In this document: piece by piece, positions 3,370 through 64,000 of the stretch
How positions within the stretch are numbered: position 1 is the stretch's first letter
Layout of the letters: every line of letters starts with the position of its first letter
Origin: an uncultured Eubacteriales bacterium
Lineage (GTDB): Bacteria; Bacillota; Clostridia; Oscillospirales; CAG-272
Assembly: GCA_900546635.1 (NCBI GenBank)
Contig: URDS01000005.1
Span: 73-64,072 of the forward strand
Direction: 5' to 3'
DNA length: 64,000 nucleotides
Translations under genes and position numbers: made by a program
Notes under the pieces: generated by a model
The model's database searches: none
What the model was told of the DNA's origin: nothing
What the model saw: only the letters and a program-made list of their open reading frames with translations

Positions 3370-5631
3370 ATGAAAAGAAAACGATTCTGGCTGCCATTCG
3401 CTGTTTTTCTCTGCTTTTTCTGTCTGTCGGTCTGCGGTTTGGAAACCGTGCTGTACGAAAATGACTTTTCAAGCGCGGACTTGTCCGCTTTTGCGCAAAG
3501 GGGCGGCTTTACGGTGAAAGACGGAAAGCTGTATACGACAAGCGGCAACGGTCCGTCCGCATTTTTATCTTACACATTTCCCGCATCGGCACAGGGAAAG
3601 GATTACAGGGTCGATGTGGACTATATCGGTCACACCGGCATGGGCGGCATCTTAATCGGCGCGACCGGCAAAAAGCTGACAGCCGTGCCCGCATACTTTT
3701 CAGGTTATACCTGCACGACAACCACAGACGGCCAACATACATATATTGCGTATTTCAACGAGACAGGCTGGGGCGGCAACTTTGCGCCCGGCACGAACAA
3801 AATTGAATTTTCGGATATTCATTTGTCGGTTACCGTACAAAAAGGCGTGATGACCTTTCGCACCACCTCGCTTGACCGTAAAACCGAAATTCAAACTTTC
3901 CGCTATGAAATCGGCGATCATGAAAAAGACCTGTACGATACCTTTCTTTCGACGGTCGGTCTGCGAAAATATTATAATGACAGCGGCTGCTTTGATAATT
4001 TTGTAATTACGATTTTGGAAGATGACAAACTGCCCATCATGACCGAACACTTAAAGTGCGGCGATACAGATTTTTCATCGAGCGGACTTGCGGCAGACGG
4101 CGGGCTTTTGACCGGCAGCGGCGCCGCGCTTTCCGAATCGAAGCTGAGCGGGAACTACCGTCTGACCTGCGCGGTTGCAAGCAATGACATAACACGGCTG
4201 TATTTCGGAATGAAGGATGAAAAAAACGGTTACGCATTTGAGTTGAATGAAGCGGAAAAAGCCGTTTTTCTGTACAGCATCCGCGACGGCGTGTATACCT
4301 GCCTCGGCGAAAAGGAAACCAGATTGCGGAATCGTTTTTGCGACCTCACGCTTGACGTGACAGACGGTGTTGTCGCGCTTTATTATGACAATCTCCACGA
4401 GGGCGCGGCGGCTTTTCCGAAGTTTGAATTTCCGATTGCGGATGCGGACGGCAAATTTGGCTTTTGGCTGTCGGGCGGACAAATCGCAGAACTTACGCTC
4501 GGCGACGGAGCGAACATAAAGCGGGATGAAACCTATCTGAATCCGGTCTGCCCCGGCGCCGACCCGGATATGCTCTATTATGACGGCACCTATTATCTCT
4601 ATGTTTACGCAGGCAACGACGGCACCAATATTTTCCGTGTCTACACCTCACCCGACCTTGTGCATTTTACGCCGCGCAATATCGTTTTCAAATGGGACCA
4701 TGAACAATATGCCAATGTGAACGGCAAGTCCGCATGGAGCCCGAACGTCTTTTATTATGACGGTTTGTTCTATCTGTTCTTTGCCGCAAATCCTGCCGGA
4801 GACGACTCGGTACGCCACGTTTATTACGCCACCTCGGATTCGCCTTACGGTCCGTTCAAGCATGACGGTCCGCTGGTCGCTGTCAATCCGGATGTAAATG
4901 AGATCGACGGACATCCGTTCCTTGACGATGACGGACGCATTTATATGTCCTTTTCACGCTATGACCTGGGTGGCACAATCTGGCTTGAGGAGGTCAAAAT
5001 GAAGGACGGCGTGGTCACCGCGCTACCGGAAACAGCAACGCGTGTGATTATTTCCGACCGCGAATGGGACAACGACGGTGCAACACGTCTGTGCGAAGGC
5101 GGTTTCGTTTTCAAGCACAACGGCCTTTACTATATGATTTACGCGACAGTCAGCTATGCGCGTCATTACGGCGAGGCTTTCGCCGTGGCGGAACATCCGC
5201 TCGGTCCCTATAAAAAATATGACTACAATCCGTTTCTGATACACAACTATACGCTGGACGGACCGGGCGACGCGCTTGTGATACCGTCTCCCGACAAAAC
5301 CGAACTCTATCTGGTCTATCACCGGCATTTTGCCGTCGGCACGGTGCATCCGCGTCAAACCTGTGTGGATCTTATCAAATTTGTGCCCGACCCGGACGGC
5401 GGACCGGATATTTTGACGGTACGCGGACCGTCATCCACACCGCAGCCGCTGCCCTCAAACAGCGGACGTTATGACGTTAACCGCGACGGGCGCGTCACCC
5501 TTGCCGACGCGCTGAAAGCCCTGCGCGTCTGGGTTGCCGGCGGGACATACAGCGGTATTTACGATACGGATGCAAACGGTTCTGTCGGACTGAATGACGT
5601 GGTTTGTATCTTGAAAAATTTATTGAATTGA
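3370..5631 (+). CDS. Secreted multidomain GH43 glycoside hydrolase with C-terminal dockerin
   Basis: Signal peptide MKRKRFWLPFAVFLCFFCLSVCG. Two N-terminal beta-sandwich-like modules. GH43-type propeller motifs (DPDMLYYDGTYYLYVY, WSPNVFYYDGLFYLFF, DGHPFLDDDGRIYM, CEGGFVFKHNGLYYMIY). Two dockerin Ca-loops, DVNRDGRVTLAD and DTDANGSVGLND. GGAGGG RBS. Confidence 0.8.
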   Translation: MKRKRFWLPFAVFLCFFCLSVCGLETVLYENDFSSADLSAFAQRGGFTVKDGKLYTTSGNGPSAFLSYTFPASAQGKDYRVDVDYIGHTGMGGILIGATGKKLTAVPAYFSGYTCTTTTDGQHTYIAYFNETGWGGNFAPGTNKIEFSDIHLSVTVQKGVMTFRTTSLDRKTEIQTFRYEIGDHEKDLYDTFLSTVGLRKYYNDSGCFDNFVITILEDDKLPIMTEHLKCGDTDFSSSGLAADGGLLTGSGAALSESKLSGNYRLTCAVASNDITRLYFGMKDEKNGYAFELNEAEKAVFLYSIRDGVYTCLGEKETRLRNRFCDLTLDVTDGVVALYYDNLHEGAAAFPKFEFPIADADGKFGFWLSGGQIAELTLGDGANIKRDETYLNPVCPGADPDMLYYDGTYYLYVYAGNDGTNIFRVYTSPDLVHFTPRNIVFKWDHEQYANVNGKSAWSPNVFYYDGLFYLFFAANPAGDDSVRHVYYATSDSPYGPFKHDGPLVAVNPDVNEIDGHPFLDDDGRIYMSFSRYDLGGTIWLEEVKMKDGVVTALPETATRVIISDREWDNDGATRLCEGGFVFKHNGLYYMIYATVSYARHYGEAFAVAEHPLGPYKKYDYNPFLIHNYTLDGPGDALVIPSPDKTELYLVYHRHFAVGTVHPRQTCVDLIKFVPDPDGGPDILTVRGPSSTPQPLPSNSGRYDVNRDGRVTLADALKALRVWVAGGTYSGIYDTDANGSVGLNDVVCILKNLLN

Positions 5632-5867: not shown

Positions 5868-5898
5868 AAAAAGCAGCCGCGCACAGGCGGCTGCCTTC
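5868..5898 (-). terminator. tsf terminator copy that retains the U-tract (left copy of the 26-bp duplication)
   Basis: On the minus strand this reads gaaggcagccgc-ctgtgc-gcggctgc followed by TTTTT. Confidence 0.6.
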
Positions 5899-6062
5899 TG
5901 ACCGTCGAAAAACGAAGGTTTTCCGACGATGAGGCGCGTTCGCTCGCGCCGTCGCGCCGCCCTTGGCGGCACTCGCACGCCTGTAAGGTGTTTACAAGGC
6001 GGCACAGGTCCGCCTTGTAAACGTATTTGATTTGCGATTTTCACTTCTTTGACAGACTGAAG
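5899..6062 (+). mobile_element. MITE-like structured repeat, copy A (164 bp)
   Basis: Flanked by 26-bp direct repeats at 5873-5898 and 6063-6088 (25/26 identical). The 124-nt core 5903-6026 matches the reverse complement of 9687-9810 at 116/124 positions with no gaps (hand count). The first 12 nt recur at 63989-64000. No credible ORF. Confidence 0.75.
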
Positions 6063-6151
6063 GCAGCCGCACACAGGCGGCTGCCTTCACTTTCTATCAA
6101 ACGTTTTGTTGTCCTTTTTACAAGCTACCCGGCTTTGGCTTTTATTCGCTT

Positions 6152-7916: not shown

Positions 7917-8028
7917 AAGTCTCCTCCGGTTTTTCCACCATATGAGCTGCTGCCGCCAACCTTTCGGCACCGGGCGGCTCTATGCCCCTATGTGTGTATT
8001 AAATTTTCTGCTTATTGCAGACTTAAAT

Positions 8029-8507: not shown

Positions 8508-9356
8508 GTGATCCTTTTGCGTGAATTTATTACACCGGATTTTGTAAAAAACGCGCTTCCGAAACGAAAACGACAGTCAAACAAATCTACCTACGGCCGT
8601 GTACTGCTCGTCTGCGGAAGCGATTGTATGCGCGGAGCCGCCGCACTGGCTGCGCGCGGCGCGCTTCGAATGGGCGCCGGACTTGTAACCGTCGCATCCT
8701 CGAAAGCCGTGATCGACACGCTCTCTGTTTCCCTCTGCGAACCGATTTATTTAGACACGGAAACCGACAATCTTTTTCAAGCGGCAGAGCGAATGCAGGC
8801 CATCGGCCTCGGATGCGGTCTCGGCCGCACAGAAAAGACGGCCGCATGGACGATCGAATTTTTATCCTCTGCCGGCGCCCCGCTGATTCTGGATGCCGAC
8901 GGTATCAACGTACTGAGCGGACAGGCAGCGTTTCTGAAAGCGGCGAAGCGTCCGGTTTTGCTCACGCCGCATCCCTTAGAATTTTCCCGGCTGACAGGGC
9001 TCCCGATAGAGGCCATTCAATCTGACCGCGAAAACACTGCGAAACGGTTTGCCGCCCAATACGGCGTCACACTTTTGCTCAAAGGCGCGGACACCGTGGT
9101 CACGGACGGAGAAACCGTATATGTCAATCCTACCGGTTCAAGCGCGCTTGCCAAGGGCGGAAGCGGAGACACGCTTTTGGGTATGATCTGCGCGTTTGCA
9201 GCGCAGGGCGCGTCGCTTTTAAATGCGGCGGCTATTGCGGCCTATCTGCACGGACTGGCAGGCGAGCGCCTTTCCAAAATCTATTCGGAATACGGCGTAC
9301 TGCCAAGCGATCTCCCCGAAAAAGCCGCGCAAATTCTGGCCGAATGGGGATTCTAA
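8508..9356 (+). CDS. nnrD: ADP-dependent NAD(P)H-hydrate dehydratase (YjeF C-terminal type, no epimerase domain)
   Basis: Motifs STYGRVLLVCGS, AALAARGALRMGAGLVTV and a C-terminal GGSGDTLLGMI. The start codon is uncertain (GTG 8508 or TTG 8517). Confidence 0.8.
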   Translation: MILLREFITPDFVKNALPKRKRQSNKSTYGRVLLVCGSDCMRGAAALAARGALRMGAGLVTVASSKAVIDTLSVSLCEPIYLDTETDNLFQAAERMQAIGLGCGLGRTEKTAAWTIEFLSSAGAPLILDADGINVLSGQAAFLKAAKRPVLLTPHPLEFSRLTGLPIEAIQSDRENTAKRFAAQYGVTLLLKGADTVVTDGETVYVNPTGSSALAKGGSGDTLLGMICAFAAQGASLLNAAAIAAYLHGLAGERLSKIYSEYGVLPSDLPEKAAQILAEWGF

Positions 9357-9615
9357 AGTATAAAAACCGCACAGCCATTTTCAAATTTTACATCTTTATG
9401 GATATAAAAGCAGGAAAGCAATTGTTTTTTGTCAATCTGTAATACAATAAAATTTGCGAATGAAAATAAATGTATGGTTGCAGGACAGACATACATCGTT
9501 TTGCAAATCTTCTGCGAGCAGTTCCCCAAAGTGCACCGGCGCCGATACGCAAGTATCGCGAAAGGACGGCGAAGCGCGCATATACAATCCGCTCATTGAA
9601 AAAATATTTTTTCAT

Positions 9616-9648
9616 AAATTTAAAACAGGGAAGCTACCGCTTCCCTGT
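9616..9648 (-). terminator. rpsU terminator copy that retains the U-tract (left copy of the 26-bp duplication)
   Basis: On the minus strand this reads acagggaagc-ggta-gcttccctgt followed by TTTTAAATTT. Confidence 0.6.
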
Positions 9649-9813
9649 CAGCTTGTCGATCAAGATAAGAATTGCAAATAAAAAAAATACGTTTACAAGG
9701 CGGACATGCGCCGCCTTGTAAACACCTTACAGGCGTGCGAGTGCCGACAATGGCGGCGCGACGGCGCGAGCGAACACGCCCTATCGTCGGAAAACCTTGG
9801 TTTTTCGACGCTC
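9649..9813 (-). mobile_element. MITE-like structured repeat, copy B (165 bp, inverted relative to copy A)
   Basis: Flanked by perfect 26-bp direct repeats aaacagggaagctaccgcttccctgt at 9623-9648 and 9814-9839. The core is 116/124 identical to copy A. Confidence 0.75.
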
Positions 9814-9844
9814 AAACAGGGAAGCTACCGCTTCCCTGTTTTGA

Positions 9845-60302: not shown

Positions 60303-62059
60303 AAAAATGGCTGAAGTATGTAAAGCCATACACAAAATACTTTATTCTGGGTCCGCTGTGCATGATCGTGGAGGTTGTCGGTGAGGTTGCAATGCCGAAG
60401 CTCTACTCCATGATCGTCGGTCATGCAGAAAAACATCTGAGCGCGCAGGCAGACGGTTCCGTCTTGTACGTAACCGGCATTGCGCTGTTGATGGTGCTCA
60501 CCGCGCTGCTGATGATGGCCGGCGGAATCGGCGGCGCGTATTTCGGCGCAAAAGCCGCCGTCAATTTTGCAAGCGACCTGCGTCTTGACGTATACAAGCG
60601 GGTTCAGGACTTTTCTTTTGCCAACATAGACAAATTCCAAACCGGCTCCCTGATTACCCGTCTGACCAACGACGTGACACAGCTTCAAAACTTTGTCAAT
60701 ATGCTGCTGCGAATGTTTCTGCGCGCCCCCGGTATGCTGATCGGCGCGCTGATTATGTGCATCTCGCTCAGCCCGAAGCTTGCGCTGGTTCTGGCGGCGG
60801 CCATTCCGGTGCTTGCCGTTCTGCTTTTCTTTATTGTCAAAGTCGGTTTTCCGCGCTTCGGCGTTATGCAGACAAAAATTGACGCGCTGAACAATACAGT
60901 CGGCGAAAATCTGACCAATATGCGCGTGGTAAAATCCTTTGTCCGCGAAGATTTTGAAAATGAGAAATTCCACAAAGCCAACAACAATCTGAAAGAAGCC
61001 GGTCTTCGCGCCATGAACGTGATGATCTTCACCCAGCCGATCATGATGCTGGTCATGAACCTGACCTCCCTTGCCGTGATCTACTTCGGCGGCAATATGG
61101 TCATCGGTGGGAGCCTTGCCATTCAGGATTTTTCCGCGCTGCTCACCTACATCATGCAGATTCTGATGTCTCTGATGATGATTACCATGCTCTTTATGAT
61201 TAGTTCGCGCGCGCTGGCGTCCTCGCGGAGAATTACCGAGGTGCTTGAGGAAAAAATCGATCTCAACGACACCAACGCCGCGCACAAAGATAAAAAGGTT
61301 GAAAAGGGCGAGGTCGAATTTAAAAATGTCGGCTTTCGCTATTATAAAAACAGCCCGGACGAAGTCCTGAGCAAGATCAGCTTTACAATTCATGCCGGTG
61401 AGACGCTCGGTATTATCGGCGGCACCGGCAGCGGAAAGACTACGCTTGTGTCCCTGATCCCCCGCCTGTACGACACAGACGAAGGCGAGATTCTGATCGA
61501 CGGCGTCAATGTAAAAGACTATGACATGCATACGCTGCGGGACGGTATCGGCATGGTGCTTCAAAAGAATCTGCTTTTTGCCGGAACCGTTGAAGAAAAT
61601 CTCCGCTGGGGAGATGAAAACGCTTCCGAAGCCGAACTCCGGGAAGCGGCGCAGTCCTCGCAGGCAGACGGGTTCGTTCAAAGCTTTAGCGGCGGCTACG
61701 CGCATGAAATCGAGCGCGGCGGCGCCAATGTCTCCGGCGGACAAAAGCAGCGTCTGTGCATTGCGCGCGCACTGTTGAAAAAGCCGAAAATCCTGATATT
61801 GGACGATTCGACCAGCGCTGTGGACACGGCTACCGAAGCCAAAATCCGAGAGGCGTTTAAAACCAGTCTGAAAGACTCCACAAAAATTATCATTGCACAG
61901 CGTATTTCCTCGGTTCAGGACGCGGATAGAATCCTTGTGCTGGAGGACGGGCGCATTGCCGGCCTCGGTCGTCACGACGAACTTCTGCAAAGCTGCGAGG
62001 AATACCGTGAAATTTACACACTGCAGATCGAAAGCAAGGGGGTAGAGGAAAATGGCTAA
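60293..62059 (+). CDS. ABC exporter, fused permease/ATPase (heterodimer subunit 1)
   Basis: Six-TM domain, Walker A GGTGSGKTT, VSGGQKQR, and Walker B ILILDDSTS. TTG start; exact position uncertain. Confidence 0.9.
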   Translation: MHLKKWLKYVKPYTKYFILGPLCMIVEVVGEVAMPKLYSMIVGHAEKHLSAQADGSVLYVTGIALLMVLTALLMMAGGIGGAYFGAKAAVNFASDLRLDVYKRVQDFSFANIDKFQTGSLITRLTNDVTQLQNFVNMLLRMFLRAPGMLIGALIMCISLSPKLALVLAAAIPVLAVLLFFIVKVGFPRFGVMQTKIDALNNTVGENLTNMRVVKSFVREDFENEKFHKANNNLKEAGLRAMNVMIFTQPIMMLVMNLTSLAVIYFGGNMVIGGSLAIQDFSALLTYIMQILMSLMMITMLFMISSRALASSRRITEVLEEKIDLNDTNAAHKDKKVEKGEVEFKNVGFRYYKNSPDEVLSKISFTIHAGETLGIIGGTGSGKTTLVSLIPRLYDTDEGEILIDGVNVKDYDMHTLRDGIGMVLQKNLLFAGTVEENLRWGDENASEAELREAAQSSQADGFVQSFSGGYAHEIERGGANVSGGQKQRLCIARALLKKPKILILDDSTSAVDTATEAKIREAFKTSLKDSTKIIIAQRISSVQDADRILVLEDGRIAGLGRHDELLQSCEEYREIYTLQIESKGVEENG

Positions 62060-63950
62060 ACGAACCCTGGAAAATCTGCAAAAGCAGTATAATTCCTATA
62101 CGGCGGCTGTGAAAAGCGGCCCCATGCGCGGTCCGGGGCCGGGTGGTCCGGGGCCGGGCGGTCCCGGAGCCCATGGCCGAATCTCCGCATCCAAGCCCAA
62201 GGGCGACACCAAAAAGGTGATCCGGCGGCTGCTTTCCTACATCGGTTCCTACAAATATATCCTGCTCATTGCGTTTGTTTTTCTGATCGTCTCCACACTT
62301 GCGGGCACGGCGGCATCCTATCTGCTCCGCCCCATTGTCAATACGCTGGTTGACGGCAGCATGACCGTATCAGACCGGGCAGCGTATATTCTCAAAACGG
62401 TCTTTCTGCTGCTCGGTATTTACCTTGTACAAGTGCTGTTCCAATATCTGCAAGCAAAGCTGATGCTGCGGGTTTCCCAAAACGCAATGGAAAAGCTGCG
62501 CAACGACCTGTTTGCCAAGATTCAAAAACTGCCCGTCAGATTTTTTGACAATGAAAGCCACGGTGAAATCATGAGCCGCTTTACAAACGACGTCGATAAT
62601 GTGGCCACCATGTTTGACAGCACGCTGACCAGCCTGATTTCCGGCGCCATTACGCTTCTCAGCACTTTTGCGATCATGTGCTACACCAACATCTGGCTCA
62701 CGCTGATTACCGTAGCCTTTATCCCGGTGTTTATTTTCGGCGGCGGCGCGATCGCCAAGCGCTCCCGTAAATATTATTCCGCACAGCAGGCTGCGCTCGG
62801 CGCGGTAAACGGTTATATTGAAGAAAGCGTTTCCGGACAAAAAGTCATCAAAGTCTTTAACCATGAGCAAACCTGCACCGAGGAATTTGCACTGCTCAAC
62901 GACGATCTGCGGGAAAAGCAGATTTCCGCGCAGTTCTACGGCGGTATCATGGGGCCGATCATGGGCAACGCCGGGCAAATCAGCTATGCGCTGACAGCGG
63001 GAATCGGCGGTATCCTCTGCCTGACGCGCGGCTTTGACATCGGCGGCCTCACGATTTTTGTCAACTATGCCCGCCAATTTGCCCGCCCAATCAACGAAAT
63101 TTCCATGCAGATGAGTACGGTCTTCTCCGCGCTGGCCGGCGCTGAGCGTGTGTTCAACATATTGGACCGCGCTGAGGAAGAACCGGATGTACCCGACGCA
63201 AACGATGTGCCGAATATGCGGGGATATGTCAAACTAAACGACGTTACTTTCGGTTATGTACCGGATAAAACCATTCTGAAACACATCTCGCTCTACGCAA
63301 AACCGGGGCAGAAGATCGCCTTTGTCGGCTCGACCGGCGCGGGAAAAACGACCATCACCAATCTGCTGAATCGGTTTTACGATATTGAAGCCGGTGAAAT
63401 CACAATCGACGATGTCAATATCCGAAACATCAAACGCGACATACTTCGTAAAAATATCGCGATGGTCTTGCAGGATACGCATCTGTTTACCGGAACGGTC
63501 ATGGAAAATATTCGCTACGGACGGCTGGATGCAACCGACGAGGAAGTTATTCAAGCCGCCAAAACGGCAAGCGCACATAGCTTTATCATGCGTCTGGAAA
63601 ACGGGTACGACACCATGATTACCGGCGACGGCGCAAACCTCTCCCAGGGACAGCGGCAGCTTTTGAATATTGCGCGCGCCGCCATTTCCAAAGCGCCGAT
63701 TTTGGTGCTGGACGAGGCGACAAGCTCCGTAGACACGCGAACCGAGCGGCATATCGAACGCGGCATGGATCGCCTGATGCAGAACCGTACGACCTTTGTC
63801 ATCGCGCACCGGCTCTCAACCGTGCGGAACGCAAGCGCCATCATGGTGCTGGAAAACGGCGAGATCATCGAGCGGGGCACGCATGACGATCTTCTGGCGC
63901 TGCGGGGACGCTATTACGAACTGTATACCGGCAAAAAAGAATTGGACTGA
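62052..63950 (+). CDS. ABC exporter, fused permease/ATPase (heterodimer subunit 2) with a Gly/Pro-rich N-terminal tail
   Basis: Walker A GSTGAGKTT, LSQGQRQL, and Walker B ILVLDEATS. It overlaps subunit 1 by 8 nt. Confidence 0.9.
   Translation: MAKRTLENLQKQYNSYTAAVKSGPMRGPGPGGPGPGGPGAHGRISASKPKGDTKKVIRRLLSYIGSYKYILLIAFVFLIVSTLAGTAASYLLRPIVNTLVDGSMTVSDRAAYILKTVFLLLGIYLVQVLFQYLQAKLMLRVSQNAMEKLRNDLFAKIQKLPVRFFDNESHGEIMSRFTNDVDNVATMFDSTLTSLISGAITLLSTFAIMCYTNIWLTLITVAFIPVFIFGGGAIAKRSRKYYSAQQAALGAVNGYIEESVSGQKVIKVFNHEQTCTEEFALLNDDLREKQISAQFYGGIMGPIMGNAGQISYALTAGIGGILCLTRGFDIGGLTIFVNYARQFARPINEISMQMSTVFSALAGAERVFNILDRAEEEPDVPDANDVPNMRGYVKLNDVTFGYVPDKTILKHISLYAKPGQKIAFVGSTGAGKTTITNLLNRFYDIEAGEITIDDVNIRNIKRDILRKNIAMVLQDTHLFTGTVMENIRYGRLDATDEEVIQAAKTASAHSFIMRLENGYDTMITGDGANLSQGQRQLLNIARAAISKAPILVLDEATSSVDTRTERHIERGMDRLMQNRTTFVIAHRLSTVRNASAIMVLENGEIIERGTHDDLLALRGRYYELYTGKKELD
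62130..62168 (+). repeat. 15-bp in-frame tandem repeat (about 2.6 copies) encoding (GPGPG)n
   Basis: ggtccggggccgggt / ggtccggggccgggc / ggtcccgga. Confidence 0.8.
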
Positions 63951-63961
63951 GCTTCATATTC

Positions 63962-63988
63962 AGGCGGACAGCAAAAACTGTCCGCCTC
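63962..63988 (+). terminator. Terminator hairpin of the ABC operon, also the insertion site of repeat copy C
   Basis: Stem GGCGGACAG-caaaaa-CTGTCCGCC, immediately followed by the repeat terminus tgaccgtcgaaa instead of a T-tract. Confidence 0.6.
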
Positions 63989-64000
63989 TGACCGTCGAAA
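63989..64000 (+). mobile_element. MITE-like structured repeat, copy C (only the first 12 nt are inside the window)
   Basis: tgaccgtcgaaa is identical to the first 12 nt of copy A (5899-5910) and sits in the same position relative to a terminator hairpin. Confidence 0.5.

Follow-up and report, generated by a model that had tools for sequence, protein, structure and literature searches.

A third copy of a MITE, probably mobilised by an IS1182-family transposase, at a duplicated terminator hairpin

The window, by which is meant the whole 64,000-nt stretch of DNA analysed (G000:C5:73-64072, from genome G000), breaks off within the third copy of a short repeated element that follows directly on the terminator hairpin of an ABC exporter gene. 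The third copy is real, and its kind, that of the IS1182-type elements, is already known. With a probability of about 85%, the element is a non-autonomous MITE mobilised in trans by an IS1182-family DDE transposase that targets terminator palindromes and duplicates the whole hairpin. Its unusual feature is a 96-nt covarying folded core, which is absent from the autonomous elements.

The ABC exporter gene (632 aa; 62052-63950, plus strand, from the ORF list; Pfam ABC_membrane and ABC_tran) encodes a protein that is also found, identical, in the sister assembly L144, and its terminator is the target of the insertion. The hairpin begins about 11-12 nt past the TGA stop and is present whole as the left copy of the duplicated target (26 nt; 63962-63987, plus strand), with the stem arms aGGCGGACAG (63962-63971) and CTGTCCGCCt (63978-63987) around the loop caaaaa. 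As the initial annotation had read it, no T-tract stands behind this hairpin; the sequence continues instead with c plus tgaccgtcgaaa (63988-64000, plus strand), which by its sequence and its match to the family is the 5' terminus of the third copy, c-TGACCGTCGAAA..., and which also matches the IS1182-family IRL CAGACCGTCGACAAAAAGG of an element in genome G155. The terminator scan of the window called no terminator at this hairpin because there is no T-tract there. The exact 12-mer tgaccgtcgaaa has two sites in the window, 63989 and 5899, the second being the start of copy A; tolerating one mismatch adds a coding site and the first bases of copy B on the minus strand (9803-9814). These four matches at up to one mismatch compare with 0.39 expected, and four or more were seen in 0 of 100 shuffles of the window, so that the sharing of the 12-mer with copy A, from which a third copy directly behind the hairpin had been proposed, is far above chance. 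The remaining details of that proposal also stand: in copy A and the third copy alike the 12-mer lies one base (c) past the last duplicated base, and these two copies are on the plus strand with copy B on the minus strand.

No more than 13 nt of the element fall within the window, and contig C5 stops 31 nt further on at coordinate 64031, still inside the element; one might therefore suspect a likeness due to chance or, this being the edge of a contig, an artefact of assembly. Against this, and besides the shuffling result, the further 31 nt of C5 match the MITE family, and the final bases, ...gggcgcgtat, are consistent with the long form of the element. The matching far side, present on another contig (C76) and in the independent assembly L144, rules this explanation out, and we give it practically no weight.

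Copies A and B lie near the other end of the window. Copy A (5899-6059, plus strand; covariance model match at 5930-6025) is of the short form, 161 nt running from TGACC... to ...GACAGACTG, and sits between a left hairpin copy, AAAGCAGCCGCGCACAGGCGGCTGCCTTC (5870-5898, plus strand), and a right copy identified by flank pairing (6060-6088, plus strand) that differ by two mismatches. Copy B (9649-9814, minus strand; covariance model match at 9688-9783) is also of the short form, with a type-2 3' end (...ATCGACAAGCTG), and is bracketed by perfect 25-nt hairpin copies at its 3' end (9624-9648) and its 5' end (9815-9839).

The far side of the third copy reads, on the minus strand at the end of C76, ...ccgccttgtaaacaaattttattgcaattcctatctttatcgacaggctt followed by AGGCGGACAGCAAAAACTGTCCGCCT and then aagtttatcg..., that is, the 3' part of the family (ending tcgacaggctt) and then the same 26-nt hairpin. 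L144 (GCA_964324025.1), an independent assembly of the same species, reads through the whole insertion in the order hairpin (3411-3436), 226-nt long-form element, hairpin (3663-3688), beyond which the right flank is that of C76 and leads into a GDSL-lipase gene; the second hairpin copy is perfect both there and at G000:C76:9460-9485. The initial annotation had predicted that the 26-mer at 63963-63988 would be repeated about 164-165 bp further on. The hairpin is indeed duplicated, but the register was one base out, since the repeated unit is 63962-63987 and the last c of the predicted 26-mer is absent from the second copy on both C76 and L144. The predicted spacing did not hold either: the two hairpins are 252 nt apart, start to start, in L144, which could be chimeric inside the repeat, being a metagenome assembly, and a spacing of around 250 nt is found because the third copy is a long variant. 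The empty site is seen in the sister species G008, whose orthologous locus aligns at 94% across the joined flanks of the third copy and has, without the element, just one hairpin with TTTTTTT behind it, which together make a canonical intrinsic terminator.

Two further observations concern this locus. The same insertion differs at its first bases between the two assemblies: G000 has c-TGA-CCGTCG with an intact 5' hairpin (window 63988-64031), and L144 (3437-3460) has t-TTT-CCGTCG with a 10-nt deletion in one arm of the 5' hairpin. The TTT start of L144 restores a T-tract behind the left hairpin copy, and a TTTCCG start is found again in other copies and in every unit of the tandem arrays described below; the difference between L144 and G000 could be a MAG chimera. 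In addition, about 316 nt to the right of the second hairpin (G000:C76 minus 9144-9459, equal to L144 3689-4004) are missing from the G008 orthologue. This segment starts with the inverted-repeat-like aagtttatcgaaaaagtaaaag and also contains ...aaaataggtttacaa, and it may be the decayed remnant of another element, inserted the other way round.

It is clear from the rest of the genome that the duplication of a whole hairpin is general. Left and right flanks were matched with each other, contig breaks being bridged too, and in all 46 paired insertions obtained in this way in G000 the duplication is the whole hairpin, with a length of 19-40 nt and a median of 26. The rule of a 26-bp duplication that had been assumed is thus replaced by one in which the length varies with that of the hairpin; the value of 26 reflects the mode among terminator hairpins rather than any property of the enzyme. 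Thirteen of the 46 pairs are identical and 27 have diverged, chiefly in their loops. The stems of the duplicated pairs frequently differ by compensatory changes, and in 4 to 6 of the 46 the stems agree but the two loops are reverse complements (for example C9:71/C9:42413, C16:24014, C9:42179/C71:10969 and C3:89/C62:3182, all outside the window); loop inversion of this sort is known from small hairpin-flanked inversions. One copy in G008 (L124, G008:C7:41400-41800) has direct-repeat flanks of about 65 nt, made up of the hairpin and 40 nt upstream of it, and is without the usual 3' terminus. Several MITE copies sit between two differing hairpins, and such flanks, which recur among the autonomous relatives, need a secondary explanation, for instance recombination between copies or a replacement insertion of the sort reported for IS1272.

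The suggestion of a high-copy family, made from three insertions in the window, is borne out by the genome. A blastn search of G000 with copy A gave 260 HSPs, and when copy A, the long form and a diverged copy from G016 were all used as queries the matches merged into 179 blocks, or 1.0% of the 2.18-Mb genome. As many as 84 of the 220 contig ends of G000 fall inside an element copy, and the element therefore explains the fragmentation of the assembly. About 108 genuine 5' ends and 83 3' ends could be located, nearly all of them adjoining a GC-rich stem-loop of unique sequence. The element occurs in a short form of about 161 nt, a long form of about 235 nt (226 nt in the third copy) and a 290-nt form, the ttcgct loop being replaced by additional stem-loops in the 235-nt and 290-nt forms. 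Its boundaries are crossed by short ORFs only and it contains no transposase gene. No orientation bias was seen relative to the A/T tract (T>A in 17 pairs, A>T in 18) or to the upstream gene (co-oriented at 56 of the 108 5' ends). With all of the sequence-level features of a MITE present, the element is, on this basis, a non-autonomous MITE.

The termini point to the transposase. The 5' end of the MITE, cTGACCGTCGAAAAAC, and the reverse complement of its 3' end, CAGTCTGTCAAAAAAG or, in type 2, CAGCTTGTCGATAAAG, make up terminal inverted repeats, and the copy at C2:45920 has a perfect ...TTCGACGGTCA at its 3' end. Two IS1182-family genes are resident in G000. One, at C1:84632-86226, is intact (440 bits for NF033551, cut-off 270; Pfam DDE_Tnp_1, DUF772 and DDE_Tnp_1_6), and the other, at C2:8366-9894, is a pseudogene with three stops. 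It is the pseudogene, not the intact copy, that has the best-fitting ends: these are CAGTCTGTCAAAAAAAG and CTTTGACAGACTG, with 16/17 agreement with the type-1 3' end of the MITE, as against about 12/17 for the CAGACTGAAGAyAAA ends of the intact C1 copy. Both resident IS1182 copies are flanked by two different hairpins; around the C2 pseudogene, the differences between the two (GGAGCGGATTCC... and GGAGAGGATACC...) are paired and compensatory, and GGAGAGGATACC is seen again beside a partial MITE at C2:29330. One other gene was considered as the partner and rejected: the C24 element (G000:C24:22100-23550, L001), a 175-aa ORF followed by a 250-aa ORF with the only rve-domain match in the genome, is an ordinary two-ORF IS3-type element unrelated to the MITE.

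Most autonomous relatives behave in the same way as the MITE. A set of 80 IS1182 loci with 63-86% amino-acid identity was gathered from Clostridia isolates and MAGs (L044-L123), 49 of them with both flanks. In 30 of these 49 a whole hairpin of 18-34 nt is perfectly duplicated, right up against the inverted repeat CAGACTGTAGACAAAG and in most cases with A as its first and T as its last base; the remaining 19 lie between two different hairpins (e.g. L049, L050, L056, L077 and L080). Within the same order as G000, the whole hairpin is duplicated in 10 of 16 further elements with both flanks, and the inverted repeats of the same-order elements bracket both termini of the MITE. The G155 element is 1571 bp long and has nine identical copies, and all four of those examined have perfect hairpin duplications; its IRL (CAGACCGTCGACAAAAAGG, also given as CAGACCGTCGACAAAA) matches the 5' end of the MITE, C(A/T)GACCGTCGAAAAAC, and the IRR of L156, CTTTTTTGACAGACTG, is identical to the 3' end of the MITE. 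Some copies of the MITE in G016 have diverged and start with GAGACTGTCGAAAAAC, intermediate between the two forms. In this data set, then, whole-hairpin duplication is found in most examined copies of an IS1182 subgroup from gut and rumen Clostridia, and by its sequence the MITE is a member of that hairpin-duplicating subgroup. From the shared termini alone we infer that an IS1182-family transposase mobilises it in trans. For IS1182, ISfinder gives direct repeats of 0-60 bp. When the three MITE forms were compared by blastn with 82 IS1182 loci, nothing was common to the two past the terminal 16 or so bases. A parent IS containing the MITE core was likewise rejected, this search of the 82 loci being blank and the core motifs being absent from four autonomous elements, and the covariance model found no core in five genomes with intact autonomous IS1182 copies.

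The same outcome would be seen if the MITE derived instead from an IS30-family element of the IS1630 type, since IS1630 of Mycoplasma fermentans is a published duplicator of terminator inverted repeats and is flanked by duplicated junctions of 16-26 bp (PMC3317919). However, NF033563 found no match, and hence no IS30-family gene, in the 98.5%-complete genome G000, the IS30 loci of related genera do not have the 5'-end motif of the MITE, and both of its termini match inverted repeats of the IS1182 family. An IS30/IS1630 partner was rejected on these grounds and an origin of this type is highly improbable. IS1630 itself also differs in coming from another transposase family and in being an autonomous element, not a MITE.

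Under the preferred IS1182 reading, the transposase would ignore the sequence of its target and choose a DNA palindrome, in practice an intrinsic-terminator hairpin, which for the third copy would be the ABC-exporter terminator. Each end of the element would be joined to a different strand, one at either foot of the palindrome, and gap repair would then leave one full copy of the hairpin on either side of the element. The observed joints are symmetric at the two feet of palindromes of any sequence, 18-40 nt in length, and the palindrome is wholly duplicated. It may be that the palindrome is recognised when extruded into a hairpin or cruciform. If the transposase attacked this structure across its base, with an ordinary short stagger and the standard polarity, the resulting duplication would be as long as the hairpin. 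Because the geometry of a DDE transpososome is fixed, extrusion is the simplest account of a stagger that depends on the hairpin, and it is as a model of this kind that we infer the cruciform step.

The folded core, 96 nt long, is preceded in the element by the 5' terminal hairpin and followed by the 3' tail. It consists of a long-range helix, P2 (GGGCGCG...CGCGCCC), a nearly invariant hairpin, P3 (GCCGCC/GGCGGC), and an internal hairpin, Hi, with the conserved loop CACATGT. Among 17 hand-chosen sequences from three genera, 93.7% of cells are standard pairs and 15 of the 26 pairs have changed on both sides; 0 of 500 shuffles reach this covariation, and slid controls are 40-47% paired. For 39 distinct sequences, whose alignment was fitted to the covariance model and is hence biased towards the structure, the figures are 96.2% and 23 of 26 pairs, again with 0 of 500 shuffles reaching the covariation and with slid controls 41-49% paired. 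An alternative 'switch', in which the 5' GGCGCG would pair with the proximal CGCGCC, was rejected, as it is not conserved (the G008 copies have CTCTCGCC) and it is the distal helix that covaries. Of 151 genomes sampled from the order, 7, belonging to five families, have a match to the covariance model of the core; G031 carries 14 copies and G166 carries 11, and there too the core lies between duplicated hairpins.

A conserved fold might be thought to indicate a functional RNA, and two explanations of this kind have to be weighed. Structured RNAs normally have a clear excess of G·U pairs, yet the 959 paired cells of the core contain 15 G·T and 16 A·C pairs, with no G·T excess. The absence of G·U excess favours palindromes under selection at the DNA level, on either strand, and so we favour a structure of the DNA rather than of an RNA. 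The first such explanation is that of an RNA-based mobile element, for instance a degenerate class C group II intron or a retroelement homing to terminator stem-loops. Class C group II introns insert beside intrinsic terminator stem-loops, and the covarying core and the GNRA- and UNCG-like loops of the long form would fit with such an origin. They are, however, ribozyme and reverse-transcriptase retroelements, much larger and without terminal inverted repeats or target duplication. The element has both inverted repeats and symmetric target duplications, which are not products of retrohoming, and DDE insertion sequences have identical flanks to these. Its 161-290 nt are also far under the size of a ribozyme, and in Rfam, introns included, copies A and B, the long forms and the arrays are all without a match at the gathering score. 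Together with the G·T count, this makes an RNA-based element scarcely credible. A separate, sub-threshold Rfam match in the window (7929-8014, minus strand) is to t44 RNA, at 24.2 bits against a gathering score of 44 and E = 0.069.

The second explanation is that the element is mainly a structured RNA or regulatory module useful to the host, of 3'-UTR or small-RNA type, held between twin terminators, and that its movement is a by-product or has ceased. In favour of this, conservation and covariation of the core extend over at least five families of the order, and read-through should transcribe the element because the upstream hairpin loses its T-tract on insertion. And yet there are more than 100 copies in both orientations to the neighbouring genes, the spread among the 151 genomes is patchy, the site of the third copy is filled in G000 and empty in G008, and the duplication pairs that are still identical indicate recent insertion; further, the base-pair statistics are without strand asymmetry. 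A host module of this sort is therefore improbable, if somewhat less so than an RNA-based or IS30-derived element, and a mobile MITE is the reading that we retain.

Tandem arrays of the 5' unit occur at G000:C6:43620-44013, C32:23551-23909, C65:10524-10878 and C43:7916-8267. The units are positions 4-118 of the element placed head to tail at the foot of the internal hairpin, each beginning (c/t)TT-CCG immediately after an internal hairpin ending ...CCGCCTT, and each array has a single 3' tail and is bracketed as a whole by one pair of target hairpins. Simple nested insertion is a poor fit, as a second tail would be expected from it and none is seen, and on their sequence the arrays appear not to be accounted for in that way. 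A comparable tandem duplication of the left end is known in IS1272L (PMC5678879). It is conceivable, though on balance doubtful, that the core is a cis-acting DNA-structure module, with built-in palindromes that the hairpin-recognising IS1182 transposase would bind or land on; if so, this would account both for the runaway copy number and for the arrays at the foot of Hi. A resemblance of the core to CRISPR repeats was also considered. A CRISPR array in G000 (G000:C15:14062-15560) contains at least 12 copies of the repeat GTCGCACCCCGCGAGGGGTGCGTGGATTGAAAT, which is similar to type I-C repeats; the core shares with it only GTCGC and a GC-rich hairpin and is without the 3' handle, and mimicry was rejected, the likeness being judged due to chance.

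The third copy itself adds little beyond copies A and B. The wider family matters for the reading of the genome: besides breaking up the assembly, it explains the apparent twin terminators behind many genes, and many operon ends may terminate differently because each insertion strips the T-tract from the upstream copy of the hairpin. A 2024 review of prokaryotic MITEs does not mention an IS1182-derived or hairpin-duplicating MITE (PMC10969869), and our search of the literature for IS1182 elements with palindromic targets found nothing other than the papers on IS1272.

Comparison with these and other known systems places the element as follows. IS1272 and TnSha1, IS1182-family elements of staphylococci, choose as targets hairpins or inverted repeats, in many cases terminators, that are unrelated in sequence, and their published insertions delete or replace the hairpin with no target duplication (PMC4923244, PMC5678879). 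The transposase family and the hairpin targets are the same here, but the hairpin is kept and duplicated; by analogy, its deletion by IS1272/TnSha1 would be the expected outcome of the opposite polarity of attack, and the two outcomes would form a useful pair for studying how a DDE transposase reads the shape of DNA. With class C group II introns the element shares its position at terminators, from which it is set apart by its small size, inverted repeats and duplications. Like the classical MITEs (Correia/NEMIS, RUP, BOX and MITEAba12) it is short, non-coding, multicopy and intergenic with terminal inverted repeats, and like them it is probably mobilised in trans, as the shared termini suggest; the classical MITEs, however, make fixed duplications of 2-9 bp at sites defined by sequence, unlike the whole-hairpin duplications seen here. 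Closest are the autonomous IS1182 elements of Clostridia, which have in common with it the termini CAGxCxGTCGAnAAA, the DDE transposase family, the duplication of whole hairpins and a subterminal hairpin by the inverted repeat, and which differ in their length of 1.5-1.7 kb, in carrying their own transposase and in being without the 96-nt folded core of the MITE.
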